The notes under the pieces are model-generated. The model searched no databases and was not told the DNA's origin. It was given only the letters and a program-made list of their open reading frames with translations. From assembly GCA_026395435.1 (NCBI GenBank), contig JAPLYT010000012.1, positions 86,332 through 150,331 on the forward strand: a stretch of DNA of 64,000 nucleotides. The letters are read 5' to 3'. Both the position numbers and the translations under genes were made by a program. Positions within the stretch are counted from its first letter, which is position 1; each line of letters opens with the position of its first letter. Source of the DNA: Candidatus Saccharimonadota bacterium (lineage in GTDB: Bacteria > Patescibacteriota > Saccharimonadia > Saccharimonadales > AWTP1-31). This document shows, piece after piece, positions 8,237 to 50,973 of the stretch.

Positions 8237-8284
8237 GCCACGCAGTATAACAGATTGACGGCCGGTGCGTAAGAACAGCCGTGC

Positions 8285-8980: not shown

Positions 8981-9363
8981 GAGGCGTGTGCCAAGAGTTC
9001 GGACTCTACAGCGTTTGTTAATTTTTCTAATGACGTTGTAGGTTTATATAAATGTACCTGTACATGCAGTTCCTTAGAAAGGACGTCGCCTTGATTGAGG
9101 GCACGAAACGGAACGCTCGTATGAAGGATTACAGGAATGCGCTGCCATTCAGGGTATGATCGCATTTCGTACAAAAATTCTATCCCATTATGTAGGGCTA
9201 TCTGAAGTTCAAGGACTATGAGGTCAATCTGGTGTTCATCTAATGTTTGTATCGCGTCACGAATATCGACAGAATGATGTACGGTATGATTGGCGTGTTG
9301 AAGGGCGCGTTTATATGTTGAGGCAAGTGATTCATCCGGCTCGATCAATAACAACGTAGCCAC
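8977..9363 (-). CDS. receiver-domain protein with Glu replacing the phospho-acceptor Asp
   Basis: 128-aa CheY-like pattern: LLLIEPDES, IDLIVLELQ (Glu where Asp is expected), ILHTS and YKP. It overlaps recO by 4 nt. Confidence 0.7.
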   Translation of the reverse strand: MATLLLIEPDESLASTYKRALQHANHTVHHSVDIRDAIQTLDEHQIDLIVLELQIALHNGIEFLYEMRSYPEWQRIPVILHTSVPFRALNQGDVLSKELHVQVHLYKPTTSLEKLTNAVESELLAHAS

Positions 9364-9366
9364 AAT

Positions 9367-14809: not shown

Positions 14810-16294
14810 CTATTTAGTATTACGCTCTGCTCTAATAGCTTCAACTCTATCAAATAGAGTATCCGTAAAATGGTCTGAGCCAAAGCTTTTTCTGTAGCTT
14901 CTTACAAATTCAAAATCTGAAACGGTAGAATTAGCTAATTTTTGTGCATATTGCTCTACTCGTTTATCAATTTCTGCGACTAAAGCGGGATCGGTCTTCG
15001 ACTTTTCCAAAATTCTTCCTATTACACCGCTGAAGCCACCTGTATAATCAGCGATTTCGTTATGGATACTGCCAGACTGGTTGCTGAGATAGACACCTGG
15101 TGCTGCTGTTAATATATCAGGTAACAAATCTAATCCTACAACGGAAGCAATGTCTGCATAAATGTCTTCTTTGACGCCTCCCTTTACATGCGAATCAAAG
15201 TATTCGAGTACATCAAATCCTGTCGCAAGCTTTAGGTCATTAAAGAAAAATTTAACATCCTGATATCCTTGCATATCACCAGCAAAATATTCTGCTCTTC
15301 GTTCTTCTAGATTAATACCAAAGAATACTCCTTCTGTAGCCAATCCACCCTGTGTGTGGACATATTCATGCAATGCGATCGAACTATCCCGTATTAGGTC
15401 GTTTTCTGAATAATATTCGTGTCGGTTTTCTAGATCATTATCATATGCTATCTTTTCAGCATATCCAGCTGACACATTCAAAAGTGTCCTGTTCTTACTT
15501 TTTACGACAAATGCTGCGGCGACTGCATTAGAGCCAGTCTCATTAATGAAGGATTCTGTACGCTTTTCTAGACCTTTTAGCCATGATCTTGATGCGTCAA
15601 GATCATAGGTGCTATCATCATATTTTAAATTTGCAGCCACAGGGTCATCTCGGTACTCTTCAGCAGTTGGCCAACGGTCTTCGGATATCTTTCTACCAAC
15701 ACCGTGAGTGTCAGAACCGTCAGTAATACTAAGCACATGTACTTCATAAGGGTCTTCATTATCGTTTGTGATGCCCATTCTACTCTTTACACCGTCAAAC
15801 ATTCCATTTTTTATTTTTTCAGTTAGATCATGCGTTAAATCAGGCTGAGTATACCTATCTATTACGGCAGTTGTATTTCCTTCCGATCTGCTATGACCAG
15901 CCTCTACCTCGGTTTGCTTTTTTAAATCATCAAAAGCATCTGTATAATCTTTTGCTAAAGCATATACTCCGTTAGCTATAAATTCTTTTTCACGAACGTT
16001 AGAAGCCTTTGGATCGGTTTTGTCTAACGTTGCATAACGAAACGCAAAAGAACTCAATATGACTAACCTTGCTTGGGCATCCTCACCTTCAAAAAAAGTA
16101 GGGTTTATGCTAAATTCATTGACTAATTCAGAAATTGCCGGTGCGAGTTCTGGATGACTGAACTCTTCAACGGAAGGATAACTTTGAGCCATAATATCTA
16201 CTTGTGCATTAATATCAACGAGGGGAATGCCCAACTCGGGTTTGCTGACAACTTCTGTCGTTGGTATTGGTTGATATTGTAACTGTTCTGTCAT
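14810..16294 (-). CDS. hypothetical HExxH zinc-metallopeptidase-like protein
   Basis: 494-aa ORF with no signal peptide or TM segment. It contains HEYVH followed by Glu residues about 20 aa downstream (NLEERRAEYF), a gluzincin-like spacing. It is visibly more AT-rich than its neighbours. Confidence 0.6.
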   Translation of the reverse strand: MTEQLQYQPIPTTEVVSKPELGIPLVDINAQVDIMAQSYPSVEEFSHPELAPAISELVNEFSINPTFFEGEDAQARLVILSSFAFRYATLDKTDPKASNVREKEFIANGVYALAKDYTDAFDDLKKQTEVEAGHSRSEGNTTAVIDRYTQPDLTHDLTEKIKNGMFDGVKSRMGITNDNEDPYEVHVLSITDGSDTHGVGRKISEDRWPTAEEYRDDPVAANLKYDDSTYDLDASRSWLKGLEKRTESFINETGSNAVAAAFVVKSKNRTLLNVSAGYAEKIAYDNDLENRHEYYSENDLIRDSSIALHEYVHTQGGLATEGVFFGINLEERRAEYFAGDMQGYQDVKFFFNDLKLATGFDVLEYFDSHVKGGVKEDIYADIASVVGLDLLPDILTAAPGVYLSNQSGSIHNEIADYTGGFSGVIGRILEKSKTDPALVAEIDKRVEQYAQKLANSTVSDFEFVRSYRKSFGSDHFTDTLFDRVEAIRAERNTK

Positions 16295-16390: not shown

Positions 16391-16795
16391 CTAGGCTGCG
16401 AGGTGGTGCTTGATGCGTTCTACGACATCAGCGATTACAACTTGTGATTTGACGAGGTAGTCGTCTGCTCCGAGGCTCATAGCGCGTTCTTTGTCGCTGT
16501 CTTGGCTAAGTGCAGTCAGCATGACAATCTTTACCTTTGCGGTTTCTGGAGTGTTTCTGAGGATGTCGAGAACATCGAAACCACTCACTTTAGGCATCAT
16601 GACATCAAGAACAATTAAGTTTGGTCGGTATTCAAGAGCACCTGCGAGTGCATCTTCCCCGTTTGGTACTCGCTTAACATCGAATCCTTCTGCCTGCAGA
16701 CGTGTTTGATATACACTCGCCAGTGCGTCGTCGTCTTCAACGAGCATAATTTTGAACTGTTTTGTTGCTGCTTGAGTTGTTTGTTGTTCTTCCAT
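16391..16795 (-). CDS. single-domain response regulator (CheY-like)
   Basis: 134-aa ORF with canonical receiver residues: VEDDD, LIVLDVMMP, MLTA and LVKS. Confidence 0.9.
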   Translation of the reverse strand: MEEQQTTQAATKQFKIMLVEDDDALASVYQTRLQAEGFDVKRVPNGEDALAGALEYRPNLIVLDVMMPKVSGFDVLDILRNTPETAKVKIVMLTALSQDSDKERAMSLGADDYLVKSQVVIADVVERIKHHLAA

Positions 16796-22701: not shown

Positions 22702-23784
22702 TTATGAAAAATTCATTTCTAGGTATGCAGAAATAAATGGTTCAATATTCCCAGCCAAGACGCCTTCGGCGTCACTCGTTTCATATCTGGTTCTCAGATC
22801 CTTCACTTGTTTGTATGGATGCAATACATAACTTCTAATCTGATTGCCCCATTCGGCAGACTGGTTAGGTCCTTTAATCTCATCAAGGTGATCTTTGTGC
22901 TGCTCGATTTGGAGGACGGCTAATCTTGACCGTATGACGGTCATGGCTGTCTCTTTGTTTTGAAGCTGTGATCGTTCGTTTTGGATTGATACGGTAACGC
23001 CACTGGGGATATGGGTGATTCGAACTGCCGAGTCTGTCGTGTTGACGCTCTGTCCTCCGTGGCCACCTGCCCTATAAACATCAATCTTAAGATCTTTAGG
23101 GTCGATTTCAAGTTCGTCTGGCCGGTCTATCTTGGGCATGACGTCTACTTTGGCGAAACTGGTCTGCCGTAAGCTATCTGAATTAAATGGACTCAAACGA
23201 ACTAAACGATGTACTCCATGCTCAGAGGCCAACTTGCCATAGGCGAATGGTCCATTAATTTCTAATGTAGCGCGCTTAAGGCCGGCTTCTTCCCCGGCTG
23301 ATTCTTCGATGAGCGTGATAGACATATTTTGCTGTTCTGCCCACCGTGTGTACATTCTCAGAAGCATTGCGGTCCAATCTTGGGCATCAGTGCCTCCAGC
23401 GCCAGCAGAAAGTGTGATAACCGCATCATGATCATCATACTTCCCATTAAATCTCAGTTCTGCTTTTAAGGCGTCAAATTTCGAAGTTGCTTGTTCAAGC
23501 GAAGTTTGTAGATCTGCTTGCAACGATTCATCACCGAGCGACGCCATTTCGGATAACTCTGTCAGTTGTGAGCCGAGCTGTTTCCAAGGCTCTACACGCG
23601 ATTGTAGCGCGGATTGCTTCTTCATTATCTCTTGAGCGGCAAGATTATCATCCCAGAAGCCAGTCTCTGCTATTTTCTCAGAAATTGATTGAAGTTCATG
23701 CTCTAATTGAGAGATATTGAGCCGTTCGATTGCAGTATCATATGCACTTCGAAGCACGTTAGTTTTTTTCTGTATTTCATCCAT
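22702..23784 (-). CDS. prfB: peptide chain release factor 2 (single uninterrupted frame)
   Basis: 360-aa ORF with the SPF tripeptide (RLSPFNS) and GGQ (GGHGGQSVN). The N-terminus is in the same frame, so no programmed +1 frameshift is needed. Confidence 0.95.
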   Translation of the reverse strand: MDEIQKKTNVLRSAYDTAIERLNISQLEHELQSISEKIAETGFWDDNLAAQEIMKKQSALQSRVEPWKQLGSQLTELSEMASLGDESLQADLQTSLEQATSKFDALKAELRFNGKYDDHDAVITLSAGAGGTDAQDWTAMLLRMYTRWAEQQNMSITLIEESAGEEAGLKRATLEINGPFAYGKLASEHGVHRLVRLSPFNSDSLRQTSFAKVDVMPKIDRPDELEIDPKDLKIDVYRAGGHGGQSVNTTDSAVRITHIPSGVTVSIQNERSQLQNKETAMTVIRSRLAVLQIEQHKDHLDEIKGPNQSAEWGNQIRSYVLHPYKQVKDLRTRYETSDAEGVLAGNIEPFISAYLEMNFS

Positions 23785-27902: not shown

Positions 27903-28277
27903 CTATAAATCGTTTGCGCCAGAAACGCGCTTGAGCCGAGCAAGTATCCGATGGCGCAATTGTCCACTGGCATGTTTTTGCTTATATTTTTTTATCTGAT
28001 TCTTGAGCTTTTCTTCGACTACATCTATAGCTGCAAACATATTTACGGTTGTTTCTTTTGTGGTGATTGTCGCTTTTGGTAGAAAAAGAATCACTTCGCA
28101 GGTGCACTCTACGCGAGATTTAACTTTCTGTTCTTTTAGTTTAACCTCTGCATGTGCAGACTCTCGAGCGCTCATTGGCAAATATTGGTCGAGTTTACTA
28201 ATTTTTTTAACGATATATTTATGAAGATCTTCGGTTACCTCAGTATGTATGCCTGCGATTTCAATTTTTTTGATCAT
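27903..28277 (-). CDS. hpf: ribosome hibernation factor (short HPF/RaiA type)
   Basis: 124-aa ORF. The pattern IEIAGIHTEVTEDLHKYIVKKISKLDQY is typical of the sigma-54 modulation / S30AE family. Confidence 0.8.
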   Translation of the reverse strand: MIKKIEIAGIHTEVTEDLHKYIVKKISKLDQYLPMSARESAHAEVKLKEQKVKSRVECTCEVILFLPKATITTKETTVNMFAAIDVVEEKLKNQIKKYKQKHASGQLRHRILARLKRVSGANDL

Positions 28278-29518
28278 ATTTTTTCTTTTCCTCCCATATA
28301 CGCCCTTAGTACTTCCGGAATAATCACATCGCCGTCTGCGGTTTGATAGTTTTCAATAATCGCCACAAGTGAACGTGCGAGCGAAACGACAGTACCGTTG
28401 AGCGTGTGCACTGTAGCGATATCGCAGTTTGCTCGACGTACTCGAATATTAAGATTTCGCGCTTGGTAATCCGTGCAATTGCTACAGCTCGTTAACTCAC
28501 GATACATTTGATCAACTGGGGACCAGTATTCAATATCGTATTTCTTAAATGCCGGAGCACCTAGGTCGCCTGAGGCAATATTTATAACATGGTATGGAAT
28601 TCCAATTGCCTGCCACACTTCTTCTTCAATTTTAAGAATCTGCTCATGCATTTGTGCGCTATTTTCTGGTAATGAGAACGCGTACATTTCAAGTTTATTA
28701 AATTGATGCACTCGGAACAGTCCTCGATTGTGTTTACCGTACGTACCTGCTTCTTTGCGATAGCAAGGGCTTAAGCCTGCATAAAGGAGTGGAAGATCAC
28801 TCTCATTGAGTATTTCGTCTGCGTGATAGCCAGTAAGTGACATTTCTGCAGTTGCGATCAAACTTAAGTCTTCACCTTCGATAAAATACTCATCACTTTG
28901 ATCACTTGTTCGGGGGGCAAAGCCAGTTCCGCTCGCGGTACGAGCATTTACCATGTGTGGAACTGTCATAAATGTAAAATCTTTTTTGATGATAAAATCG
29001 AGTGCAAATTGAGTGATAGCATTCTCTAATAGGGCTAGATCTCCCTTTAGAAAATAGAACTTAGTGCCAGCGACTTTAGTGCCCCGTTCGAAATCTACCC
29101 AACCCTTTTCAGTGGCAATATCGAGGTGATCACGGGCATCAGTTTTCTGATCACCATATTTTTTAATCTCGATACTGGCATCTTCGCCTCCGACCGGTAC
29201 GTCATCTGCCGTAATATTAGGAATGCTATTTAGGGCTGCCATAAACTCAACATCAATAGTATTAAACTGAGGTTCGAGTGCTGCGAGTTGGTCCTTAAGC
29301 AATTTTCCCTTAGCAATTTGTTCTACTGAAGGCTTTCCGCCCTTCATACTGTCCGCAATAACATTACGTTGCTTGCGAATATCCTCTACTTCCGTAAGCA
29401 GTTCACGTCGACGGCTGTCAATTCCTAATAGCTGTTCAATATCTACGTCGTAACCTTTTTGTTTTGATTTCTCTGCGACTAATTCTGGATTTTCTCGAAT
29501 ATACTGAATATCTAACAT
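28274..29518 (-). CDS. serS: serine--tRNA ligase
   Basis: 414-aa ORF starting MLDIQYIRENPE, with a coiled-coil arm and class II motifs (FRVHQFNKLE, GLAxxR-like). Its TGA stop overlaps the hpf ATG. Confidence 0.95.
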   Translation of the reverse strand: MLDIQYIRENPELVAEKSKQKGYDVDIEQLLGIDSRRRELLTEVEDIRKQRNVIADSMKGGKPSVEQIAKGKLLKDQLAALEPQFNTIDVEFMAALNSIPNITADDVPVGGEDASIEIKKYGDQKTDARDHLDIATEKGWVDFERGTKVAGTKFYFLKGDLALLENAITQFALDFIIKKDFTFMTVPHMVNARTASGTGFAPRTSDQSDEYFIEGEDLSLIATAEMSLTGYHADEILNESDLPLLYAGLSPCYRKEAGTYGKHNRGLFRVHQFNKLEMYAFSLPENSAQMHEQILKIEEEVWQAIGIPYHVINIASGDLGAPAFKKYDIEYWSPVDQMYRELTSCSNCTDYQARNLNIRVRRANCDIATVHTLNGTVVSLARSLVAIIENYQTADGDVIIPEVLRAYMGGKEKI

Positions 29519-29532: not shown

Positions 29533-30330
29533 TTATGTCTTCTTAGATTTTATGCTAGAAATATGCTTTAGTGTTAACTCGGTTCGTTTTCGTGCATATA
29601 AGCAATAATCGCACTCGCCTCCCATTGCTGCTTGCCCAACAGCAGGCATGTCGCCTTCCATGCATTCTTTCATGGCTATAAGTGTTTTTTCTACCCAAGC
29701 ATCACTCCCATGGTGCGGGAATACATTTGTCCGAAATTCTACGACATCGTTAAAGCCATCTTTACTGGCATCTCCGTTTGCATAAACAAAGTATCCTGTG
29801 TCGCTTACTTTATGTCCGTTAGCTCTCAGTAGCCATTGATATGTTTCCATTTGTCGCCGATAGGCATCTTGCCAACCACCGACTGGTCCAAGGCTGGTGA
29901 TCTCTTTATCTTTAGCAGTCGCTTTATAATCAACCACTATCAGCTCATCGTCACTATTTATCCAGACGTCATCCACTGCCCCAAATACGTGAAGATTGGT
30001 AGGCTCATGAACGATGAATACACCAACAAAATTTTCTCGCCACGTGTCGATGTCGGCATGAACATACGGTTTAGCATCTATCTTGAACTTAACCTGCAGT
30101 GGGTGTTGCGTGCCAGCAGCTCTATGAATATCAAATTCTTTTTTAAACAATTCATCAATTGCTTTATTTATATTAAACGGCGGGCTGTTTGGTCGCGTAA
30201 TCTTGAGCCTGACATCAAGCCAAAAACAGCGGGGGCACTGGGTGAATAACTCTATTTTGCTTCGACTCACCTTAAAAGGCATGGTTTGCCCAGGCGAATA
30301 CGGCTGACTTCGTTCCCTCCAATAATTCAT
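29533..30330 (-). CDS. PD-(D/E)XK nuclease family protein (Cas4/RecB-like, Cys-containing)
   Basis: N-terminal CPRCFW, core D..VVDYK and C-terminal CDYC. I prefer the start at MNYWRER (30330) because the longer ORF overlaps rsmE. Confidence 0.7.
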   Translation of the reverse strand: MNYWRERSQPYSPGQTMPFKVSRSKIELFTQCPRCFWLDVRLKITRPNSPPFNINKAIDELFKKEFDIHRAAGTQHPLQVKFKIDAKPYVHADIDTWRENFVGVFIVHEPTNLHVFGAVDDVWINSDDELIVVDYKATAKDKEITSLGPVGGWQDAYRRQMETYQWLLRANGHKVSDTGYFVYANGDASKDGFNDVVEFRTNVFPHHGSDAWVEKTLIAMKECMEGDMPAVGQAAMGGECDYCLYARKRTELTLKHISSIKSKKT

Positions 30331-30334
30331 CTGT

Positions 30335-31018
30335 CTATTGTAACAGTTTTCCGCAAGCAATTACTGAAGCAGTCTCAGCCCTCAGGGTGAAATCATGGAG
30401 AGAGAGGTGATTAATATGACGTTCTTTAAATAATTGTTTTTCAGCATCACTCCAACCACCTTCTGGACCAATAAGTATACCGATCTTTTCTGCCGGTAAT
30501 GTAGAATTATCACTTCCTTGCTCGCATATATACAGCGGCATTGTATCGACATACTGTTCAATGGCATTTGTAACATGCATGGCGTCTCGAATACGCGGAA
30601 TATCACTTCGACCACATTGTTCAGAAGCCTCGATAACGATCTTTTGAGCACGCTCTATATTGAATCCGGCTTTCTCTGATCGGTCTGCAATTAGTGGTAT
30701 GAAGTGACTAACGCCCAATTCCGTACATTTCTGAAGCACCCAATCATTCTTATCTTTCTTTAGTAATGACCAGAACAAATAGAGCTCTCGCTTTGGTAGC
30801 TGTAAATCGCGGTCTGTAATGTATTCAAGACGAGCTTCAGTATTTGTGATTTCAGTAATTTTATATTGTGTATCTTGTTGCTGGCCATCAAATAGTACGA
30901 CTTCTTGGCCAGGACGAAAACGCAATACTTTTGTCCATTGATGAAGAATCGGACCATCCTTCAACCAAAAATTATGCTCAAAATTCATGTCTGGTACGTA
31001 AAATCTATGAATTTTCAT
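30335..31018 (-). CDS. rsmE: 16S rRNA (uracil1498-N3)-methyltransferase RsmE
   Basis: Starts MKIHRFYV. The C-terminus carries the SPOUT knot region GPEGGWS..E. The start at 31018 gives an ATGA overlap with the upstream gene. Confidence 0.85.
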   Translation of the reverse strand: MKIHRFYVPDMNFEHNFWLKDGPILHQWTKVLRFRPGQEVVLFDGQQQDTQYKITEITNTEARLEYITDRDLQLPKRELYLFWSLLKKDKNDWVLQKCTELGVSHFIPLIADRSEKAGFNIERAQKIVIEASEQCGRSDIPRIRDAMHVTNAIEQYVDTMPLYICEQGSDNSTLPAEKIGILIGPEGGWSDAEKQLFKERHINHLSLHDFTLRAETASVIACGKLLQ

Positions 31019-32289
31019 TTCCGCTCCAGTATACACAAACATTCAATATGTGGCGTTCGAGGGAAGAAATTATAACCTTCGGTAAATGAAAGGTTGTATT
31101 CATTTTTCAAGAGCGCAACGTCTCTTGCTTGGGTGGAAGGATTGCACGAAAGATAACAAATTTGCGCTGGCTTAACATCAAGAATTCTTTCTATAACATC
31201 CTTGTGGAGCCCACTCCTGGGAGGGTCTACGATCAGGCAAACTTCATGTGTTATATAATCAAGCGAATCTTCTGAACTGGCCTGAATCACTGTAATTTTA
31301 TGGTTTTCAGCATTGATTTTAGCAAGCTTAGTGTTTGCAGGATCAAGCTCGATAAGAGCCTCAACTCCTCCTATCGGAATACCGATCGACCCTACCCCTG
31401 CGTACATATCGATCTTGTGGTTGTGCGCTTTAGTCTTTTCGTCAATCCGCTGTAAGGCTTTTGTGAATACTGGAATATTTACCTGAAAGAATCCCGTAAC
31501 ATCGTACTTAATTTCTGTTCCGCCTAGATCATCTCCAAGCAAAGTGTCGCCAGACGAAAAGAGTAACTTTGTTGCCACTGATGCAGGACTTTTAGGATTG
31601 GAATAATATATTTTTAGACCTTTAATTTCTTGGATATCTGGTAACGGAGCGAAATCTTTAGTTTTAACGAATAATGCAGCGACAGTGTTGCCCTGCTGAT
31701 CACATCGGAGAATTACTGTTTTTAGATCTCCCGCACGAATGTCGAGTTTATTGAGACTGGCCAGGATGGCTTGGCCGGCTCGATTGAGGCATGGCATTGC
31801 AAGCGCGCTGCCAATGACTATTTGTTTCTGATGCGAACCTCTATTATAAAAAGCAAAATGAATCCCGTCGTCATCGCCAAAAAATGAAAATTCTATTTTA
31901 TTACGATAACCAAAATCTAAATTATCAGTAATCATTGGTACATCATCGATATCAATGTTTTCACGCGTGAATGCCTCTTTGAGGATTTGGCTCTTGGCCA
32001 TATTCTCTGCGCCGAATTCTAGAACTTGCCATGGAGACGTCGCCAGGAATATCGATTCTTTCGGAGCTACTCGATCTTTCGATGCAATCAAAATCTCCTC
32101 TGCAATACCTTCGCAAAAATCTTTTTTAGCTCGAGTGATCCTGGCACGTACCTTCTCTCCAGGAAGTGCATTCCATAGGAAAACTTTTCGTCCGTCTGGA
32201 AGCGTACCCAAGCCTTGCCCTCCATGGACTAATTTTTCTATAACTACTTCTTCAAATCGTACGACATTCTTCCGCATACAGGAGCTCAT
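31015..32289 (-). CDS. TrmA/RlmD family RNA (uracil-5-)-methyltransferase
   Basis: TRAM-like N-terminus (VHGGQGLG...GEKV) and a SAM-binding region (DMYAGVGSIGI, DPPRSG, YLSCNP). The start is probably at 32289 or 32277. The longer track ORF overlaps the heliorhodopsin gene. Confidence 0.8.
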   Translation of the reverse strand: MSSCMRKNVVRFEEVVIEKLVHGGQGLGTLPDGRKVFLWNALPGEKVRARITRAKKDFCEGIAEEILIASKDRVAPKESIFLATSPWQVLEFGAENMAKSQILKEAFTRENIDIDDVPMITDNLDFGYRNKIEFSFFGDDDGIHFAFYNRGSHQKQIVIGSALAMPCLNRAGQAILASLNKLDIRAGDLKTVILRCDQQGNTVAALFVKTKDFAPLPDIQEIKGLKIYYSNPKSPASVATKLLFSSGDTLLGDDLGGTEIKYDVTGFFQVNIPVFTKALQRIDEKTKAHNHKIDMYAGVGSIGIPIGGVEALIELDPANTKLAKINAENHKITVIQASSEDSLDYITHEVCLIVDPPRSGLHKDVIERILDVKPAQICYLSCNPSTQARDVALLKNEYNLSFTEGYNFFPRTPHIECLCILERK

Positions 32290-32291
32290 AT

Positions 32292-33101
32292 CTACGGACG
32301 AAGGGTGCCGATGAATACCTGCCACGCGAGTGCTGTCTTTGCTACTAAACTCAAGATCATATATGCTCGTTCCCCGTACAGATAGTTTGCCCACTTACCC
32401 TTCTTTGTATATTGCAGGTACATATTGATAGCAAAACTGTTAAAGAAAATAAACATACTGCCGTATATGAAGTACACAAATGTTGGGATACCACTTCCGT
32501 TAACCGTTGCGCCTGCAACATAGATGCCAAACACAATCCAAGGCACAATCCCGGCTAAACAGCCAATCCAATACGTCAGCCAATTTACTTTTTTAGCACC
32601 TTGATTATGTGTCTCCATGACTAGTCCCATGAGGTTCATAATGAGATCAAGAACAAAGATCATAATGAGAGAAGATAGATCATTGATGCCGCTCAAAAGA
32701 GCAATGGCAACCATCATCGTACTGGCACTTACGCCATATTCTATCCAACGTGCCTTATTAACACCTTTTTTGAGGTCAGCTTCGTAGGTTTTTCTGTATT
32801 TGGTAGCAATAATTGCATGAGCGATCGCTGACATGAAGAAGAACGCCGCAACGAAATAGCCAAGGTTAACATTAAATAGCGTACGTGAAGCGGATGCTAA
32901 AACCGGCTTGCCCGCCCCTTTGGTTGCGAGTGTATCAAGTGTCAGATACGAAGTTGTAATTGGCCATGCGACAGCCTTACTTAAAATAAGTACTGCAATT
33001 CCTTGGACAGCATGCAGTAAAGCCATGCGCTTATTCCATGAATTTAATGATTCGGTTGTTATTTTTTTAGCACTTTTGAGTTCGGGTTTTTTAAATTTCA
33101 T
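32292..33101 (-). CDS. heliorhodopsin
   Basis: 269-aa 7-TM ORF that aligns by eye along its length with heliorhodopsin 48C12. Matching segments: RWIEYGVSAS (counterion Glu), WIGCLAGIVPWI, FFNSFAINMYLQYTKKGKWANYLYGERAYMILSLVAKTALAWQVF (Schiff-base Lys in SLVAK), and both conserved His. Confidence 0.85.
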   Translation of the reverse strand: MKFKKPELKSAKKITTESLNSWNKRMALLHAVQGIAVLILSKAVAWPITTSYLTLDTLATKGAGKPVLASASRTLFNVNLGYFVAAFFFMSAIAHAIIATKYRKTYEADLKKGVNKARWIEYGVSASTMMVAIALLSGINDLSSLIMIFVLDLIMNLMGLVMETHNQGAKKVNWLTYWIGCLAGIVPWIVFGIYVAGATVNGSGIPTFVYFIYGSMFIFFNSFAINMYLQYTKKGKWANYLYGERAYMILSLVAKTALAWQVFIGTLRP

Positions 33102-33156
33102 ACCTGTACTATAGCATATATTCTGAATCGATGAGTGCTATACTAGTAATACGTTT

Positions 33157-33825
33157 ATGAAAAAAAAACTCAAAATCACTCAACGCAAATCAATTAAAAA
33201 AGATATCGTAAAATGGCGCACGCGATCACGTAAAACAAAAATAATTCTCATATTATTGACTGTAGTTGCAACGGCAAGTTTGGTCATAATTGCACTTCCA
33301 TATCTACCCCGGTTACATTACCTCATTTTCAGGCCCAAAATTAATCCGGCACCGTATCAACAAGCGGCTGTAGTAACAAAGAAAAAAGAGATTGTAGCAC
33401 CGCTTCCGGAAGAGGTCAAAAAAGGCAATCGTCTCATATTGCCCCAAATTGGGGTTAATGCCCAAATTATTGAAGGTCAGAACATATATGTGATCGGCAA
33501 GAATCAGGGAGTTTGGCATGAGACATCAAATATTGATCCTACACAGACCGGCAATATTGTCATAGCCGGTCATCGATTCCTGTATACCGCAACAAACGGT
33601 GGATATTTTTATAACCTTCCTGAATTGAAAGTAGACGACAAGATTTTTATACGATGGAACAGTAGCGTCTTTGAGTACCAGGTTTACAACACTCGAACTG
33701 TATTGCCGACAGAAGTAGATATCAAAGATCCAGACCCGCAAGTGCCAAAAAAACTAACCATGTATACTTGTTACCCTCTTGGGAGTACCGCTAAGCGTTT
33801 TGTTGTGGAAGCAAAACAGTTGTAA
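33157..33825 (+). CDS. sortase family transpeptidase
   Basis: 222-aa ORF with an N-terminal TM anchor, the catalytic His in IAGHR, the Cys in LTMYTCYP (TLxTC-like) and a C-terminal Arg. Confidence 0.85.
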   Translation: MKKKLKITQRKSIKKDIVKWRTRSRKTKIILILLTVVATASLVIIALPYLPRLHYLIFRPKINPAPYQQAAVVTKKKEIVAPLPEEVKKGNRLILPQIGVNAQIIEGQNIYVIGKNQGVWHETSNIDPTQTGNIVIAGHRFLYTATNGGYFYNLPELKVDDKIFIRWNSSVFEYQVYNTRTVLPTEVDIKDPDPQVPKKLTMYTCYPLGSTAKRFVVEAKQL

Positions 33826-33826: not shown

Positions 33827-34360
33827 TTATCGAAGTTTGCTCGTAAATTTTGCTCTGAGTTTAGCCAATTTTGGATTAATAATTACCTGGCAATATCCCT
33901 GTTCTGGGTGCTTTTCAAAGTAGTTCTGATGCTCATCCTCCGCTGGATAAAAGACGTCCAGTTCTTTCACTTCGGTGACTATAGGATCATCCCATAGTTT
34001 TGCAGCCTCTTTAAGTGAATGTTCTACGGCTTTCTTCTGATCTTCACTGGCATATAAAATTACCGAACGATATTGGGTCCCATGATCTGCGCCTTGATAA
34101 TTAAGGGTTGTTGGGTTGTGCATGGCCCAAAAAATATCAAGTATATCTGAAATAGTAATTACGCTAGGATCATACGAGACTTTAACAACTTCTGCATGTC
34201 CAGTATTTCCTGATCCAACAGAATAATAATCGGGGTTTTTAGTTGTTCCTCCGGCATAACCCGAAATGACTTCAGTAATGCCTTCTATGAGTCTAAATCC
34301 GGCGTCTAGACACCAAAAACAGCCACCTCCTAATACAATTGATTCAATTTTATCCGTCAT
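33827..34360 (-). CDS. msrA: peptide-methionine (S)-S-oxide reductase MsrA
   Basis: 177-aa ORF with the GGGCFWC active site and GHAEVV, HDPT-like (HNPT) and QYRS motifs. Confidence 0.95.
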   Translation of the reverse strand: MTDKIESIVLGGGCFWCLDAGFRLIEGITEVISGYAGGTTKNPDYYSVGSGNTGHAEVVKVSYDPSVITISDILDIFWAMHNPTTLNYQGADHGTQYRSVILYASEDQKKAVEHSLKEAAKLWDDPIVTEVKELDVFYPAEDEHQNYFEKHPEQGYCQVIINPKLAKLRAKFTSKLR

Positions 34361-34361: not shown

Positions 34362-34664
34362 TTATTCGGACACCGTCACATCTCGCCAAAAGGCAACGTA
34401 ATTGCTAAAATCTTTCTTTACTTGATCGATAGCTGTCGGCTTTGGATCTGGGTAGCTAAAGGCGCTATCTTGGCTTGATTCCCCATCAATTGTAACCGTA
34501 AAATACTGACAGACGCCTTTCCAAGGGCATGTGTACGGCGTATCACTTTTTACAAGATACTCTTTTTTGACTGAAGATGGCGGAAAATACCAGTTTCCTT
34601 CAATATAAATCAAATCTTTTCGTTCTGCTTCTGCGATTACATGCTCTTTCCATAGTGCTTTCAT
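34362..34664 (-). CDS. DUF427 domain protein
   Basis: 100-aa ORF. EGNWYFP....T.CPWKG.A.YF is the hallmark of DUF427. Confidence 0.75.
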   Translation of the reverse strand: MKALWKEHVIAEAERKDLIYIEGNWYFPPSSVKKEYLVKSDTPYTCPWKGVCQYFTVTIDGESSQDSAFSYPDPKPTAIDQVKKDFSNYVAFWRDVTVSE

Positions 34665-34684: not shown

Positions 34685-36046
34685 TTATTCGGTTCGCAAT
34701 GCTTCGATAGGGTCTAATTTTGCTGCTTTTCTGGCTGGTAGTAAACCGGCAAAGATCGCCACAAGCACCAAGAGGACGATCAATATCGAAATCTGTTTTA
34801 AGTCAAAAATAAGTAATTTTTGAGTACCAAGGTCTAGCCGTTTTGTGATCCACGGGTTAAGCACTGTGCCAAGTAGGAATGCAGCAAGAGACCCGATAGC
34901 ACCGCCCAAAAACCCAATCCATGCTGCTTCAAATCTAAAGAGACGACTTATGTCTTTGCGGCGAGTACCAAGTGCTTTCATGAGACCAATCTCCCTGGTT
35001 CTTTGGAGTACACTTATGTACATTGTATTTACGACGCCAAAGACTGATGCAATCACTGCGATAAAGCCAAATGCAGCTACGATTGCTTTCAATACATCAA
35101 TTATTTGTGTCAAGAATTTTTGGGTTTCTTCTACACTTTGAGAGGTATAGCCATCCTTCTTGAGCCTTGCCTGAACCGTTGCTATATTAGCTTTGTTTTC
35201 ACCGTTCTTAACGCGGGCGTAGGCATAGGTGTACTTCCGGTATTGATTTGTGCCAATTTTCGCAATATCATTCAAGGCTTTGGCGTCTTTATTGCTAATA
35301 AACAGATACAACTCTGTTCCCGGCTGTGATGTAGTCGGCTTTTTCAAGACGGCTGCTATCTTAAATTGCTCTAGGGCAGACGATGATTTGGCTAATTCTT
35401 GAATGTCATTTGTGTTAGATGGTATTCCATTCTGAAGGATACTGGCGATATCAATTGATTTTCTAACGGCGAGCGTTATACTCTTCCCCACTGCTTCTTG
35501 AGGATTCTTGAATCCTAATGAAGATACGTACGCCTCGGGAAGAAGCACTGTTTTATCTGAAAGAGGCTTTACTATCGCTCCGGCAACAACTTCGGGGTTC
35601 TGAGCAGGACTAAAATCTATAGCATTTGCAACATATTTCTTAGCACCTGGCCTCGTGATGTATTCCAAAGTTAGTGTTACGCCCTCACGGACTTGTGATA
35701 CCTCTGGATATTGACGAATTTTTTGGATATCTTTATCAGTAAGTTGCTTAATTTGAACGCTTGCGCCACTGTTTACGACAGCCGAGCCAAATGATTCATC
35801 GTATTCTTTGGGTTTGTTTGTGTCTCCTCTGCCCAAAATACTCTCGTCTTTTGCCACAATTATTTCTGTTGGATCAAAATTATCGCTGATTACTCGATTT
35901 ACAAAACTTTGTGCCCCGTTGCTTGCAGCCAGAGTGAGGGTCAGTGCGAACGCTCCAACGCCAATAGCCAATGCAGTTAGAAGTGTTCTTGCTTTAGCCT
36001 GTTTGAGGTTTCGTGCGCTACGTCTGGTGATATCTATTATTCTCAT
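34685..36046 (-). CDS. ABC transporter permease (FtsX/MacB-like)
   Basis: 453-aa ORF with an N-terminal TM segment, a large extracytoplasmic domain and a C-terminal FtsX-type 3-TM bundle. It overlaps the ATPase gene by 4 nt. Confidence 0.85.
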   Translation of the reverse strand: MRIIDITRRSARNLKQAKARTLLTALAIGVGAFALTLTLAASNGAQSFVNRVISDNFDPTEIIVAKDESILGRGDTNKPKEYDESFGSAVVNSGASVQIKQLTDKDIQKIRQYPEVSQVREGVTLTLEYITRPGAKKYVANAIDFSPAQNPEVVAGAIVKPLSDKTVLLPEAYVSSLGFKNPQEAVGKSITLAVRKSIDIASILQNGIPSNTNDIQELAKSSSALEQFKIAAVLKKPTTSQPGTELYLFISNKDAKALNDIAKIGTNQYRKYTYAYARVKNGENKANIATVQARLKKDGYTSQSVEETQKFLTQIIDVLKAIVAAFGFIAVIASVFGVVNTMYISVLQRTREIGLMKALGTRRKDISRLFRFEAAWIGFLGGAIGSLAAFLLGTVLNPWITKRLDLGTQKLLIFDLKQISILIVLLVLVAIFAGLLPARKAAKLDPIEALRTE

Positions 36047-36735
36047 TTTGAAACCTTTTTCCGTTGCTTAAAGTCGATAATTTTTCCATCTTTCAGTGTG
36101 ATTCTTATCTGGCACTTTGCTGCAAGCTCGTCGTCATGGGTGACAATGATGAGCGTGTTTTTGTTTGTTTTATTAAGCTTAAATAGTAAGTCGATGATCT
36201 TGTCACCAGTAACGCTATCAAGATTTCCGGTTGGCTCATCGGCAAAAATGAGTTGCGGCTTATTGACGATCGCACGAGCTACAGCAAGGCGCTGCTTTTG
36301 GCCACCCGATAACTCACTAGCTTTGGCATTAATCTTATCCGAGAGTCCAACGGCCGCAAGAGCTTCTGTAACTTTTGCTTTTCGTTGTTTAAGTTCTGAT
36401 ATTTCCAAGGGTAATGATACATTTTGAAAACATGTTTGGTTAGCCTCTACGAAAAAAGACTGGAAGATAAAACTCATCTCGTTGGCGCGGAATGCATCCA
36501 TCGCTTTACCTTTTAGATCATGTAGTACTTCTCCCGCTATTACCACCTGACCACTGTTTGGATGATCGAGCCCACTCATGATGTGCATCAGTGTTGATTT
36601 TCCAGAGCCACTTTTTCCAATGATGGCAACCGTTGAACCTTCCGGAATATTGAAGCTTACATCGTTAAGCGCTGTCACTAAACTATCTTTTTTACCGTAT
36701 GTCTTTGATATATGTTTAACTTCAATCATATACAA
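36043..36735 (-). CDS. ABC transporter ATP-binding protein (MacB/LolD-like)
   Basis: Walker A GKSGSGKST, signature LSGGQKQR and Walker B LIFADEPT. Confidence 0.92.
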   Translation of the reverse strand: MYMIEVKHISKTYGKKDSLVTALNDVSFNIPEGSTVAIIGKSGSGKSTLMHIMSGLDHPNSGQVVIAGEVLHDLKGKAMDAFRANEMSFIFQSFFVEANQTCFQNVSLPLEISELKQRKAKVTEALAAVGLSDKINAKASELSGGQKQRLAVARAIVNKPQLIFADEPTGNLDSVTGDKIIDLLFKLNKTNKNTLIIVTHDDELAAKCQIRITLKDGKIIDFKQRKKVSK

Positions 36736-40364: not shown

Positions 40365-40823
40365 CTACCTTACAATTCTAATTCTAGTCATATCGAACAT
40401 GCCTATTCCTAATTTTGCTGCCTGCCACCGAACAGCATCTCGGCTAGCCAATGTTTGACTATGACGAAATCTGTAGTTAGTTCTCAAAAATTCACTACCA
40501 ACATTACTCAAAGCATTTCTGCCTGCGTGATGGGCAATCCTACGTGAAACAGCCTCTAATTTATCAAACTCATCTATTCCGTCTCCGAATATATTGCCCA
40601 GTGTCTTTGTCGCGTCGGCGTCTAATTTACTGGCTCTTGTTGCCATAACATTTAGTGACTTTAGGCCAAGCTCACCCATCATTACTGCCTCTGCCAGGCC
40701 AACACCTTCAACAGTATCACCTCTTTTTAGGACGCCTCCGGCTAGCAAGAAATCCTCGGCCACATTCCGCCAACCAAAGTCAATTAACGCCTGGGTGTCT
40801 TCTAATATTCTTTCTTTACTCAT
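40365..40823 (-). CDS. hypothetical protein co-oriented and nearly contiguous with proS
   Basis: 152-aa ORF with AAGGAG 7 nt before the ATG. It is probably helical. I recognised no motif and it does not look like YbaK/ProX. Confidence 0.6.
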   Translation of the reverse strand: MSKERILEDTQALIDFGWRNVAEDFLLAGGVLKRGDTVEGVGLAEAVMMGELGLKSLNVMATRASKLDADATKTLGNIFGDGIDEFDKLEAVSRRIAHHAGRNALSNVGSEFLRTNYRFRHSQTLASRDAVRWQAAKLGIGMFDMTRIRIVR

Positions 40824-41880: not shown

Positions 41881-43011
41881 TTATTTCCATATAAATCTTT
41901 GGACATCTACGAAGGTTATTAATACAAATAAGATCATAAGTGCTACGAAGCCAGACCCGTGAACTTTTTCTTCGGTCGATTGCTTCAAAGGTTTACGAAT
42001 AAGTCGATAGAACAGTGTGAGATATAACCTTCCACCGTCTAGCGCCGGGATTGGCAAAGCGTTCATGATTGCTAAGGTCAATGAAATGACAGCTATTATC
42101 ATAAGTATGAATCGGATGCCAAGACTGCTGTTGTCTTTTAGAATAACGAATATGCCTATTGGCCCTGATACTTGCTTACTTGCTTCCGAACCATGGCCTC
42201 GCGCGGCATTGCCTACCATCGACCCAAGAGCTCGCATTGTCTCTACAGTGATCTGCTTTATAAGACCCGCAGCAACGATAGGTGCAGACCATGTTGATCG
42301 TCTCATTGTTAATTCAAACGGTGATATGCCCAAGTAACCCTTGGGTTCATTAGTCTTTTTACTTGCCACTACCTCCGCTTGCGATAGCAGTTTTGCATTG
42401 AGATTCGAAGTTTTTTTGTCTCGAACAATTTCAATTACGACATCTTTACCAGCCAAAGATTTTGTCGCTTTGGGGAGATCATCTGTCGACATAATCGCGT
42501 ACGTTTTCCCGCCTGAAGTCAGCCGGGTAATTTGATCACGCTGTTTTAAGCCAGCTTTTTCTGATGGCGAATTTTTTTCAATAGATCCGACAAGCACCCG
42601 ACTATTCGATATCTTCGTATCCGATCCAACAGTAAATTGATTTTCAATTATTTTGGGTAATCCAATGAGAGCCAAGAAGGTAAACAGCGCAAATGCTGTC
42701 AGCAGGTTCATTAATACGCCGGCGATCATGACCTGAACCTTAACACCAAGAGGAGCGGCGCCAAAACTGCCCCTGGCAGTTGCTGAATCATGCTCACCTT
42801 TGAGGCGGACGAAACCACCCAAAGGCAGCCAGTTGATCGTAAATTCCATACCACTTGCAAGTTTCTTACCCCAAGCTTTGGGCGGGAAACCTATGCCGAA
42901 TTCTTCGACATCAACGCCTCCCTTACGGGCAGCGAGATAGTGCCCATACTCGTGTACAACCACCAAACCCATGAACATTATTAAACCCAAAATAAGTAGA
43001 AATACTGACAT
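41881..43011 (-). CDS. rseP: site-2 protease RseP/RasP (M50 family, PDZ-containing)
   Basis: 376-aa ORF with HEYGH in TM1, a PDZ domain (SPSEKAGLKQRDQI) and NALPIPALDGG (the LDG motif). Confidence 0.9.
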   Translation of the reverse strand: MSVFLLILGLIMFMGLVVVHEYGHYLAARKGGVDVEEFGIGFPPKAWGKKLASGMEFTINWLPLGGFVRLKGEHDSATARGSFGAAPLGVKVQVMIAGVLMNLLTAFALFTFLALIGLPKIIENQFTVGSDTKISNSRVLVGSIEKNSPSEKAGLKQRDQITRLTSGGKTYAIMSTDDLPKATKSLAGKDVVIEIVRDKKTSNLNAKLLSQAEVVASKKTNEPKGYLGISPFELTMRRSTWSAPIVAAGLIKQITVETMRALGSMVGNAARGHGSEASKQVSGPIGIFVILKDNSSLGIRFILMIIAVISLTLAIMNALPIPALDGGRLYLTLFYRLIRKPLKQSTEEKVHGSGFVALMILFVLITFVDVQRFIWK

Positions 43012-43785: not shown

Positions 43786-44346
43786 CTAGATTTTCATGAT
43801 TTCGGCTTCTTTAGCCTTACCGTTTGCTTCAGCATCTGATTTTGCTTTAGCCATGTGTTCATCAACCTGGCTAGCCAAGCGTTTTGCATCGTCCTCACCA
43901 ATAGACTTATCTTTTTTAGCGGCATCAATAGCATTCAAGGCGTCATGTCGCACTGCACGCATAGCAATCATGCATTCTTCAAGCTTAACACCTACTTGCT
44001 TGGTGATCTCACGACGACGCTCTTCATTCAGAGCTGGAATTGCTACTCGTACTACACGGCCATCATCACTTGGGTTTAAGCCCAATGATTGCGCATCGCG
44101 AATTGCATTTGCGATAGCCTGAATACTGGTGGGATCAAATGGTGTAATTTGCAATAATTGTGCTTCTGGAGCAGTGACGTTTGCAACTTGATTCAGGGGC
44201 ATACTACTGCCGTAGACTTCAACCATTATCCCATCAAGCATACCGGCACTTGCGCGGCCTGTTCGAAGCTTTTTTAGCTCATCTTTAAAGCGTTCTACCG
44301 ATTGAGCGAACTTTGTTTGTGCTTGCTGTACGATGTTTTCATTCAT
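43786..44346 (-). CDS. frr: ribosome recycling factor
   Basis: 186-aa ORF with the typical pattern LRTGRASAGMLD..V..YG and P.LNEERRRE. Confidence 0.95.
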   Translation of the reverse strand: MNENIVQQAQTKFAQSVERFKDELKKLRTGRASAGMLDGIMVEVYGSSMPLNQVANVTAPEAQLLQITPFDPTSIQAIANAIRDAQSLGLNPSDDGRVVRVAIPALNEERRREITKQVGVKLEECMIAMRAVRHDALNAIDAAKKDKSIGEDDAKRLASQVDEHMAKAKSDAEANGKAKEAEIMKI

Positions 44347-49419: not shown

Positions 49420-50169
49420 TTAAATTGTTTTATCAGCCCAGTCAGAAAACAATAGTACGATGATGATGACCGATATTACGACGAAGATAATTTGTCTCCT
49501 CAGTAAAACAGATAATTTATCAGTTTTTTCAAGATAATAGATACCGCCGAGCCCAAAACCGAGTACAGACAAAAGAAGCGCGGGCTGAGCGATCGCACCG
49601 TAAAAAATTAGCCAGTGGCATAGCACCCAAACGAGGGCCGCTCCGAAATAAGACCAAGCCCCTGCCAAATATCTCGACATTGATTCCTCGAAACCAGCAA
49701 AAAAATGGCGTGCTGCGCTATAACAAATGATCCAAGTGAGTAGAATAAGAACCAGTGATGAAGCCTGACCCCATGCAATAAAAATTGCAGATAAGCCAAT
49801 TGCCTGACTTATTAATGCCTGTAAAGAAACGCCGAGAGACGTAGCCATCGGCTTTATCGTTAAGAGCCAAAATCCGTAAGCTGCTGTCCATACAAGTTGT
49901 ATTAGCTGGGAATCGGTATGAGTCATAAAAACTAATACTGATATACCTACTATTATATCTACCGCGTTAGCGCGTATGTTTGCTGGCCAATGTCGTGGTT
50001 TAACCGAAAACATTCGCCATTTACTGAGCAAAATTAAACTTGCTGCAATTTGGATAAACCCAGTTCGTACAAAAATAAATACGAGTGCCGGCAATAAGCT
50101 CGTTAGTCCAATATGAACGATATGTGAAAAACCTGCTGCTGGTTTAATTCTTGCTGTTATTTTTCCCAT
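49420..50169 (-). CDS. hypothetical polytopic membrane protein
   Basis: 249-aa ORF with about 7-8 hydrophobic segments. I recognised no motif. Confidence 0.6.
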   Translation of the reverse strand: MGKITARIKPAAGFSHIVHIGLTSLLPALVFIFVRTGFIQIAASLILLSKWRMFSVKPRHWPANIRANAVDIIVGISVLVFMTHTDSQLIQLVWTAAYGFWLLTIKPMATSLGVSLQALISQAIGLSAIFIAWGQASSLVLILLTWIICYSAARHFFAGFEESMSRYLAGAWSYFGAALVWVLCHWLIFYGAIAQPALLLSVLGFGLGGIYYLEKTDKLSVLLRRQIIFVVISVIIIVLLFSDWADKTI

Positions 50170-50271: not shown

Positions 50272-50973
50272 ATGCCTCCACAAAATACCAATGAAGTACC
50301 AGAGCCAGAAACACCGCAAGTTAGCGTTGTATCCAACGAACAAACAAGTGGTATAGTCGATCAAGATAACCCAGAAGAGAGTGATTCGAATAGTAAGAAA
50401 GATTCGATTAAAGGCATCCTTTCTACAGTCGCTATCTTAGTTATTGCTCCTCTCATCGCTCTAAGCCTTACTGCCTTCGTATTTCAGTCGTATGAAGTTG
50501 ACGGCCCGAGTATGCAAACAACGCTTCAGAATCATGATCGACTAATTGTGTATAAATTACCTCGAACAATTGCTAAAATTACTCGAAAACCATACATCCC
50601 AAAGCGAACGGATATTATAATTTTTACTCGTCACGACAGTTTTGAGTTCGGTACGGATAAACCCCGGCAGCTTGTTAAGCGCGTAATCGCCTTGCCAGGA
50701 GAAAGAATCACCGTCAAGAAAAGTGTAGTTACGGTTTATAACGAAGAGCATCCTGAAGGTTTTAAACCCGACGAAGAAAATAAATATGGCAAAGTAATCA
50801 CCAATACTTCGGGTGATATCGACTTAGTTGTCCCAACTGACTCTATATTTGTTTGCGGAGATAACCGCCCAAATTCATTAGATTCAAGAGCTTTTGGGCC
50901 AGTCCCGCTTACTGATGTTGTCGGCAAACTATCTCTCAGAGTATATCCGTTTAAATCTGGTCAATCTTTCTAG
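50272..50973 (+). CDS. lepB: signal peptidase I
   Basis: 233-aa ORF with the catalytic Ser in DGPSMQTTL and the Lys in VKRVIALPGE, plus GDNRPNSLDSR. Confidence 0.9.
   Translation: MPPQNTNEVPEPETPQVSVVSNEQTSGIVDQDNPEESDSNSKKDSIKGILSTVAILVIAPLIALSLTAFVFQSYEVDGPSMQTTLQNHDRLIVYKLPRTIAKITRKPYIPKRTDIIIFTRHDSFEFGTDKPRQLVKRVIALPGERITVKKSVVTVYNEEHPEGFKPDEENKYGKVITNTSGDIDLVVPTDSIFVCGDNRPNSLDSRAFGPVPLTDVVGKLSLRVYPFKSGQSF

Follow-up and report, generated by a model that had tools for sequence, protein, structure and literature searches.

Heliorhodopsins (HeRs) have been described in several settings that bear on the gene reported here. The founding member, 48C12 (PDB 6SU3, 6UH3), and TaHeR from the Thermoplasmatales archaeon SG8-52-1 (6IS6, 7U55) have solved structures, and operon-encoded HeRs have been assigned ten recurrent partner classes, namely glutamine synthetase (GS), NAD+ synthetase, photolyase, MerR, TerC, ABC transporter, SDR, alpha/beta hydrolase, DUF2177 and DUF2238 (Cho 2024, PMC11109279). 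A screen of 1,326 candidate phyla radiation (CPR) genomes returned 80 HeRs in Saccharimonadia, with SLVAK as the commonest motif of transmembrane helix 7 (TM7), and following Bulzu 2021 these proteins were tied to oxidative-stress mitigation (Chiriac 2022, PMC9166423). HeR hosts were described as monoderms, and two-component genes were noted near some HeRs (Bulzu 2021). Within Saccharibacteria, genomes bearing type-1 rhodopsins (SacR) were found to carry no blh, retinal uptake from actinobacterial hosts was proposed, and heliorhodopsin was reported to bind external retinal fast through a small opening (Jaffe 2022, PMC9296517). The gene analyzed here encodes a 269-aa HeR at 32292..33101 on the minus strand of a 64,000-nucleotide stretch of contig JAPLYT010000012.1, henceforth referred to as the window, from a Candidatus Saccharimonadota bacterium. 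It is best read as a canonical, functional Saccharibacteria HeR, that is, a retinal-binding, non-pumping light sensor or regulator that is supplied with scavenged retinal and transcribed from its own leaderless promoter; a probability of roughly 0.75 is given to this reading.

The preliminary description of the window, which was made from the letters alone, had named this open reading frame (ORF) a heliorhodopsin resembling 48C12 along its whole length, and both the ORF and the resemblance were confirmed. The ORF matched Pfam PF18761 (Heliorhodopsin) with 306 bits (cutoff 26.7; E 2e-91), the match spanning the entire profile (positions 1-242 of 242), and the NCBIfam equivalog NF038020 'heliorhodopsin HeR' with 308.7 bits (cutoff 100). 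No match to the type-1 rhodopsin profile PF01036 was obtained at E <= 0.01. The best sequence matches among solved structures were TaHeR (6IS6/7U55; E 3e-67) and 48C12 (6SU3/6UH3/9LJJ; E about 1e-55), and the window protein aligned end to end with both, at 47% and 42-43% identity, respectively. The protein is identical to GenBank MCX6727996.1, 'MAG: heliorhodopsin HeR [Candidatus Saccharibacteria bacterium]'. The window gene is a genuine, intact and canonical heliorhodopsin of Saccharibacteria, and its identification is correct and well supported. This identity was already known, as the exact sequence is annotated in GenBank and the organism group is already published. The call made in the preliminary description was thus right, but the importance attached to it was overstated, given the existing annotation, the documented group and a gene adjacency that is clade gene order. 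In comparison with the Saccharimonadia and CPR HeRs of Chiriac 2022 (PMC9166423), the window protein belongs to the same group, has the same SLVAK motif and showed no difference; it appears to be an ordinary member. The result does little more than confirm an existing annotation and contributes another canonical heliorhodopsin to a group in which at least 80 species have one. Three points only are mildly new, namely that the leaderless promoter is conserved, that DUF427-MsrA-HeR holds a stable position in one clade and that a related locus (L016) has a lysine-less paralogue; each is described below.

The residues that define the retinal-binding site are present. All motifs quoted in the preliminary description were found, namely LLHAVQ (H30), IAHAII (H95), RWIEY (E121) and LSLVAKTALAWQVF (K255). 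By alignment, the Schiff-base Lys K255 (codon AAG, 32337..32339, minus strand), in the SLVAK of TM7, corresponds to 48C12 K241 and is invariant in 36 of 36 clade sequences. The Schiff-base counterion E121 (codon GAA, 32739..32741, minus strand), in the RWIEY of TM3, corresponds to E107 and is Glu in 35 of the 36 clade sequences and Asp in the remaining one. H30 in TM1 (codon CAT, 33012..33014, minus strand) and H95 in TM2 (codon CAT, 32817..32819, minus strand) align with 48C12 H23 and H80, and each is invariant in 36/36. The TM7 motif S251-L-V-A-K255 has the form SxxxK and aligns with 48C12 S237/K241, whereas type-1 rhodopsins have DxxxK. When HeR residues were mapped by alignment to the 48C12 positions listed by Kovalev 2020 (PMC7049168), 27 of the 29 structurally important residues were identical, including, besides those already named, S91 and S125 (48C12 S76 and S111), S251 (S237), R118 (R104), W119, Y122, N115, Y106, E163, E244 (E230), Y240, Q230, F220 and W260. 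The two changed positions are Q213, which is Met in the window protein, and S242, which is Thr; Q213M is a frequent variant (Kovalev 2020, PMC7049168) and is also present in TaHeR.

An AlphaFold2 (AF2) model built on the 36 clade sequences (pLDDT 85.9, pTM 0.82) contained helices TM1 (16-40), TM2 (80-99), TM3 (116-136), TM4 (142-166), TM5 (175-200), TM6 (207-232) and TM7 (245-267), together with a TM1-TM2 beta-hairpin at 46-78 (strands 46-55 and 68-78) and a short cytoplasmic helix at 103-111. K255 lies inside the last helix, TM7; the preliminary description had given a Lys outside TM7 as grounds for rejecting its call. The top 10 Foldseek matches of the model in the PDB were all heliorhodopsins (TM-score 0.78-0.90, 42-47% identity), with TaHeR at 0.83-0.90, as opposed to a TM-score of only about 0.6 and 11-17% identity for type-1 rhodopsins. 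In the model and the alignment, K255 is predicted to be placed so that a protonated Schiff base can form with retinal, the E121 counterion would be held by S91, S125 and S251, and the polar cavity at the Schiff base would be lined by H30, H95, N115, R118, Y122 and E244. Each sequence and predicted-structure test that was run agreed with the earlier suggestion that the protein is a complete heliorhodopsin, keeps its retinal-binding site intact and is probably photoactive.

Lysine and arginine residues number 16 on the N-terminal side of the membrane versus 5 on the other, which under the positive-inside rule places the N-terminus in the cytoplasm, i.e. the inverted, heliorhodopsin-type orientation. 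The protein ends in an invariant GTLRP and carries no sorting signal. The positions that form the fenestration or carotenoid site in 48C12 (162, 166, 169, 206, 207 and 210) are Y177, C181, G184, F220, N221 and A224, so that the site as described in a 2025 preprint, with its two aromatic residues, Gly at 169 and no bulky residue at 166 or 210, is present at the sequence level. The protein thus appears to have kept the lateral TM5-TM6 opening.

TaHeR, the best solved relative of the window protein, shares with it the SxxxK Lys, the Glu counterion, the two His, the Arg-Trp-x-Glu-Tyr motif of TM3, the TM1-TM2 beta-hairpin and the Met at the position of 48C12 Q213. TaHeR is archaeal; compared with it, the N-terminus of the window protein is Lys-rich and longer, and six residues are added in the TM1-TM2 loop. 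At the positions that narrow the fenestration, the window protein has the 48C12 residues (I185, F217), whereas TaHeR has F and A. Relative to 48C12, apart from the two substitutions given above, the TM1-TM2 loop is 8 residues longer. SacR proteins share the host group with the window HeR and are retinal proteins of genomes without blh that are loaded with external retinal (Jaffe 2022, PMC9296517), a logic that would apply to the window HeR as well. They differ in being type-1 proton pumps with a DTS motif and the opposite membrane orientation, with which the lack of a PF01036 match and the 11-17% identity to type-1 structures contrast the window protein.

The gene is maintained under strong purifying selection, as judged from its sequence relatives. 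Against the locus L001 (93% amino-acid identity), the proportions of nonsynonymous (pN) and synonymous (pS) differences were 0.043 and 0.73, and 20 of the 25 nucleotide differences from the closely related locus L081 are silent. The hallmark residues are invariant or nearly so across the 36-sequence clade alignment. A total of 5,954 database clusters matched the window HeR at E <= 1e-20. The 120 best database matches had 65-100% identity, and the named ones among them belong to Saccharibacteria or Patescibacteria. The best 80 loci in a species-level genome collection had 55-93% identity and come nearly all from metagenome-assembled genomes (MAGs) of Saccharibacteria/Saccharimonadales or other Patescibacteria. 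At least 80 Saccharibacteria/Patescibacteria species carry relatives of the window HeR. These homologue names and the sortase gene adjacent to HeR are consistent with a monoderm envelope. The GC content of the gene (0.417) is similar to that of the window (0.428) and of the neighboring genes, and GC gave no signal of horizontal transfer.

Only one of the 81 HeR loci compared (the window and 80 others) was found to contain two HeR-family ORFs. In L016 (CAZPWF010000003.1, a Saccharibacteria MAG), a canonical HeR at 7977-8780 is followed, 60 nt downstream, by a divergent ORF of 306 aa at 8840-9760 with 24-28% identity (E 1e-24 to 1e-27). This paralogue has Arg in place of the Schiff-base Lys (SSLVIRTMF), RWLDM in place of RWIEY and a long Lys/Thr-rich N-terminal extension; it is a lysine-less heliorhodopsin in tandem with a normal one.

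Possible sources of the chromophore were sought by a Pfam scan of the window, which covered 62 ORFs of at least 110 aa and, among shorter ORFs, DUF427 only. No Blh, CrtB, CrtI, CrtY or type-1 rhodopsin was found among these 62 ORFs, in agreement with the preliminary description, which had reported the window to be free of retinal-synthesis genes; nor did the 62 include a glutamine synthetase, photolyase or histidine kinase. The window content is consistent with retinal scavenging. The preliminary description had asked where the chromophore comes from and what the signalling partner is. Both questions are already in print; for the first, a published working answer exists (Jaffe 2022, PMC9296517), and to the second the locus gives no answer.

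A promoter immediately upstream of the HeR gene was recognized by its conservation across species. The preliminary description had placed a TATAGT hexamer 6 nt before the ATG, and this hexamer is real and ends exactly 6 nt upstream. It forms part of an extended -10 element, TGCTATAGT, at 33108..33116 on the minus strand, and the minus-strand reading at the start of the gene is TGCTATAGT-ACAGGT-ATG. The pattern TGn-TAnnnT followed by 6 nt and ATG is kept in L081, L001-L005, L008, L085, L087 and L088, and the sequence further upstream has diverged. Among the relatives measured the pattern is conserved down to 68% HeR identity; L085, L087 and L088 are more distant syntenic loci. No Shine-Dalgarno sequence was found upstream of the ATG. 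These observations imply an extended -10 promoter that is conserved and belongs to HeR itself, and a leaderless or near-leaderless mRNA that would begin at about 33101. A generic promoter and terminator scan of the window gave site counts that were not above shuffled expectation; the promoter call is based on the conservation of the extended -10 element among species.

Similar boxes were observed elsewhere in the window. About 12 of the 62 window genes have TATA(C/G)T, often after TGn, 6-8 nt before the ATG and no Shine-Dalgarno sequence, among them the genes at 2291-2710, 2762-4042, 6878-8236, 22702-23784, 28274-29518 (SerS), 41881-43011, 43786-44346, 50272-50973 and 61586-62821. Other window genes have clear AAGGAG-type ribosome-binding sites. 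This distribution suggests that leaderless transcription of operon-first genes may be a general habit of this genome.

Taken as a canonical sensory HeR, the protein would function as follows. By analogy with 48C12 and TaHeR, K255 would bind all-trans retinal, E121 would serve as the counterion, and light would isomerize the chromophore to yield a long-lived intermediate in a slow photocycle with no net ion transport. The altered cytoplasmic face would then act on a partner protein, as shown in other bacteria for HeRs with glutamine synthetase, with photolyase and with an ABC exporter (Cho 2024, PMC11109279). The cell would not synthesize its own retinal, and the apoprotein may be loaded with host or environmental retinal via the TM5-TM6 opening (from Jaffe 2022, PMC9296517). 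Transcription would start at the gene's own extended -10 element, produce a leaderless message and probably continue across the genes for the RlmD-like protein, RsmE and the nuclease. Such read-through reflects a gene order that was inherited and does not mark these enzymes as HeR partners. The HeR-glutamine synthetase, HeR-photolyase and OcHeR-OmrDE systems likely share the same non-pumping, cytoplasmic-face mode of action, and the window HeR, like the operon HeRs of Cho 2024 (PMC11109279), may be co-transcribed with downstream genes.

Several points weigh against this assignment. Retinal binding, the photocycle and the absence of ion transport are all carried over by homology at 42-47% identity, and the promoter and the read-through are called at the level of consensus sequences; the generic promoter scan returned no full -35/-10 site at the HeR start. 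The HeR transcription unit contains no member of the ten published partner classes, which leaves the regulation of a partner with no candidate and sets the window HeR apart from the systems of Cho 2024 (PMC11109279). The search for chromophore genes covered the 64 kb of the window, and retinal synthesis may be encoded elsewhere in the genome. Finally, according to the proposal of the 2025 preprint, HeRs harvest light with two chromophores and are not sensors. Four rival explanations were weighed on these and the following grounds, and none of them is favored by the data.

The genes surrounding HeR were examined for a candidate partner. On the HeR strand the order is LysS, ABC ATPase, MacB/FtsX permease, DUF427, MsrA, HeR, TRAM/U5 methyltransferase, RsmE, PD-(D/E)XK nuclease, SerS, HPF and SecA, with a sortase gene on the opposite strand between MsrA and HeR. 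Upstream, the divergent sortase (33157..33825, plus strand; PF04203) shares a 55-nt intergenic region with HeR and is followed by MsrA (33827..34360, minus strand; PF01625), DUF427 (34362..34664, minus strand; PF04248) and, past these, an ABC system of the MacB/FtsX type on the HeR strand (34685..36735). Downstream, and as given in the preliminary description, the same strand carries a 420-aa protein with TRAM and uracil-5 RNA methyltransferase domains of the RlmD/TrmA family (31015..32277, minus strand; PF01938 and PF05958), an RsmE-family 16S rRNA methyltransferase whose gene overlaps the end of the preceding one (30335..31042, minus strand; PF04452 and PF20260; TIGR00046 159 bits), a PD-(D/E)XK nuclease-family protein that is the last before SerS (29533..30360, minus strand; PF12705) and SerS (28274..29518, minus strand). 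The name 'RlmD-like' given earlier to the first of these stands at the family level, on the basis of the TRAM and U5-methyltransferase domains, and does not extend to RlmD proper, as the TIGR00479 score of 149.9 bits is below the equivalog cutoff of 183.55.

The distance between HeR and the methyltransferase gene had to be corrected. The 2 nt reported in the preliminary description refer to the first in-frame ATG (32289), which is replaced by AAG in L081, a relative of ~95% identity. The NCBI 420-aa methyltransferase product P0135 (100% identity) begins at the second ATG, 32277, so that the gap is 14 nt. L081 is a 1.7-kb locus and the sole return of a metagenome-contig search with the RlmD-like protein. 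The start of the longest possible methyltransferase ORF, a GTG at 32394 that overlaps HeR by about 100 nt, is an artefact of the ORF listing. The 14-nt gap contains no terminator-like or promoter-like element, so HeR, methyltransferase, RsmE and nuclease are probably one transcript here; SerS probably restarts from its own TATACT box, which lies 6 nt before the ATG. Hairpins with a T-run, i.e. intrinsic terminators, directly follow HeR in L026 and L034, and hairpins occur at the same place in L002 and L003. Because relatives have terminators after HeR, co-transcription with the methyltransferase is not a conserved feature.

A HeR-centered comparison of the 81 loci showed that the gene string can be recognized in approximately 25-30 of them, those closest to the window. 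In about 50 loci the context is unrelated, and several small syntenic groups of independent make-up occur among these. The simplest reading is that an ancestral order DUF427-MsrA-HeR-(HAD)-RlmD-like-(RsmE)-nuclease-SerS-HPF-SecA was inherited vertically in one Saccharimonadales clade. As the whole LysS-to-SecA string is conserved in this clade, each of its genes is equally 'associated' with HeR, and one syntenic clade counts as one evolutionary observation that provides no specific evidence for either the methyltransferase or MsrA as a partner. The earlier portrayal of the gene as embedded in an rRNA-modification and translation run is accurate as to the neighbors, but what it describes is clade-level synteny with no functional signal. 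The neighbors of HeR do not identify a partner, and the partner question is no more testable here than at dozens of other loci. In the choice of a Saccharibacteria HeR for experiments, a few features of the window gene may help, namely its predicted, conserved promoter of the leaderless type, its stable clade position and an apparently intact lateral opening for external retinal.

Two neighbors were considered and set aside. An ABC transporter as partner, by analogy with OcHeR-OmrDE, is unsupported: the MacB/FtsX orthologue pair shifts relative to HeR within the same backbone, and the window system lies upstream in another unit and is of a different type from the OmrDE-like systems, which are heterodimeric exporters. 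ABC matches near HeR in non-syntenic loci have 25-32% identity only and are therefore generic ABC ATPases. The sortase was set aside, as HeR has no sorting signal and Saccharibacteria probably carry several sortases. Two different sortase families occur in two contexts. The first (cluster C14) stands beside HeR in 12 of the 81 loci and is absent there in L085, L087, L088 and L090; since MsrA is directly upstream of HeR in more distant syntenic members, this sortase is a later insertion in the subclade of the window. The second, non-orthologous sortase (C37) is located within two or three genes of HeR in L047, L054, L058, L060 and L078, whose contexts are otherwise unrelated, and this recurrence could be due to chance.

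The rival explanation that survives best makes HeR the light-sensing arm of a photo-oxidative-damage response linked to MsrA and DUF427. MsrA is found within three genes upstream of HeR in 18 of the 81 loci. In L087, L088, L090 and the P0224 locus it is the immediate upstream gene on the HeR strand, at a distance of 17-166 nt, and two more distant syntenic loci have a gap of only 17-25 nt. The DUF427-MsrA pair directly precedes HeR throughout one Saccharimonadales clade (L085, L087, L088 and L090), which may be a matter of inheritance only. The idea also agrees with the light-induced oxidative-stress mitigation proposed by Bulzu 2021 and Chiriac 2022 (PMC9166423), who argued from glutaredoxin, peroxidase and catalase neighbors. 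However, all of the MsrA-HeR cases fall within the one syntenic clade and amount to a single evolutionary observation, and no MsrA was found near HeR in the other ~50 loci. HeR retains its promoter box even at a locus where just 25 nt lie between MsrA and HeR, and in the window the opposite-strand sortase gene separates the two. No paper naming both heliorhodopsin and methionine sulfoxide reductase was found in the searchable literature, and Bulzu 2021 does not mention methyltransferase, MsrA, DUF427 or sortase. A light-sensing role tied to MsrA is thus considered unlikely.

Less likely still is a role as energy transducer or light harvester, in which HeR would be either an ion transporter resembling viral HeRs or an antenna combining retinal with a scavenged xanthophyll. 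The fenestration/carotenoid-site motif is complete as defined in the 2025 preprint, viral HeRs are cited in Cho 2024 (PMC11109279) as able to transport protons, and some Saccharibacteria draw energy from type-1 rhodopsins (Jaffe 2022, PMC9296517). The transporting viral subfamily, on the other hand, is reported in the same preprint to be without the carotenoid site that the window HeR has, the antenna idea comes from structure and docking in a preprint, and the window HeR shares 27 of 29 key residues with 48C12.

The arrangement of the locus also invites a broader proposal, in which HeR, in one Saccharimonadales clade, heads a leaderless unit that runs on into cytosolic enzymes just after MsrA and DUF427 and, when activated by light, directly modulates one of the neighboring proteins, i.e. 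the HAD phosphatase, RlmD-like protein, RsmE, nuclease, MsrA or DUF427. If this were true, a minimal episymbiont would have one-protein, light-gated control of ribosome modification or oxidative-damage repair. No RNA-modification or oxidative-repair partner class is reported for any heliorhodopsin in the searchable literature, and the proposal is regarded as very improbable.

Another rival, and the one implied in the preliminary description, is that light-activated HeR binds or regulates the RlmD-like methyltransferase, with or without RsmE, to bring about light-dependent rRNA or tRNA methylation. HeRs elsewhere regulate cytosolic enzymes of the same operon (Cho 2024, PMC11109279), and the 14-nt gap with neither terminator nor promoter would permit a similar arrangement. 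A methyltransferase-centered comparison of ten orthologue loci (53-64% identity) placed HeR one or two genes upstream in 8 of them, as a direct neighbor in 3, with a HAD hydrolase between in 4 and with a His_Phos_1 gene between in 1. Several findings oppose a specific link. Direct adjacency is seen in 12 of the 81 HeR loci only; another ORF intervenes in several, and a HAD hydrolase or a His_Phos_1 gene stands between the two in six loci; L006, L007 and L009 have no methyltransferase beside HeR, and L012 and L013 have it at a distance of 3.5 kb; and no such methyltransferase lies within 8 kb of HeR in about 50 other Saccharibacteria loci. In L086 and L089 the string is preserved but HeR is absent. 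The ten recurrent operon partners include no RNA methyltransferase (Cho 2024, PMC11109279), and the terminators after HeR in L026 and L034 and the equal conservation of every gene from LysS to SecA count against the methyltransferase as well. Regulation of the methyltransferase by HeR is accordingly judged highly improbable.

The last rival, that HeR is a relic or light-independent in a cell that cannot make retinal, could appeal to the absence of retinal-pathway genes in the window and to the lysine-less L016 paralogue as a retinal-free HeR-like protein of the group, but it has next to no probability in view of the strong purifying selection, the Schiff-base Lys and whole pocket invariant in 36/36 clade members, the conserved promoter and the external retinal uptake documented for HeR and Saccharibacteria rhodopsins (Jaffe 2022, PMC9296517).

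The HAD-family hydrolase (C16) is the commonest insert between HeR and the methyltransferase and was observed in L085, L087, L088, L015, L017-L019 and L024. It starts 6-8 nt past the HeR stop codon in L085, L088 and the P0224 locus and is not present in the window.

The remaining Pfam content of the 62 ORFs consists of housekeeping genes. They include MraW, MraZ, FtsZ, FtsA, FtsE and FtsX, six aminoacyl-tRNA synthetases, RF1, RF2 and PrmC, S2, Ts and RRF, UppS, RseP, SecA and HPF. CTP synthase, ParA, ParB and a ribonucleotide reductase of class II together with NrdR are also encoded, among others. No tRNA genes or Rfam matches were found in the 64-kb window. Two stand-alone receiver-domain proteins without an output domain are located at 8977-9363 and 16391-16795, which is 16-24 kb from HeR. 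Six ORFs of 139-494 aa had no Pfam match at E <= 1e-3 (2291-2710, 9367-10113, 10149-10820, 14810-16294, 40365-40823 and 49420-50169); the 494-aa ORF at 14810-16294 is the largest unannotated gene of the window. At 4129-5794, a 341-aa protein resembling KwaB of the Kiwa anti-phage defence system (PF16162, E 1e-8) is encoded beside an NYN-domain protein (PF01936), and the pair could constitute a small defence locus amid the housekeeping genes.

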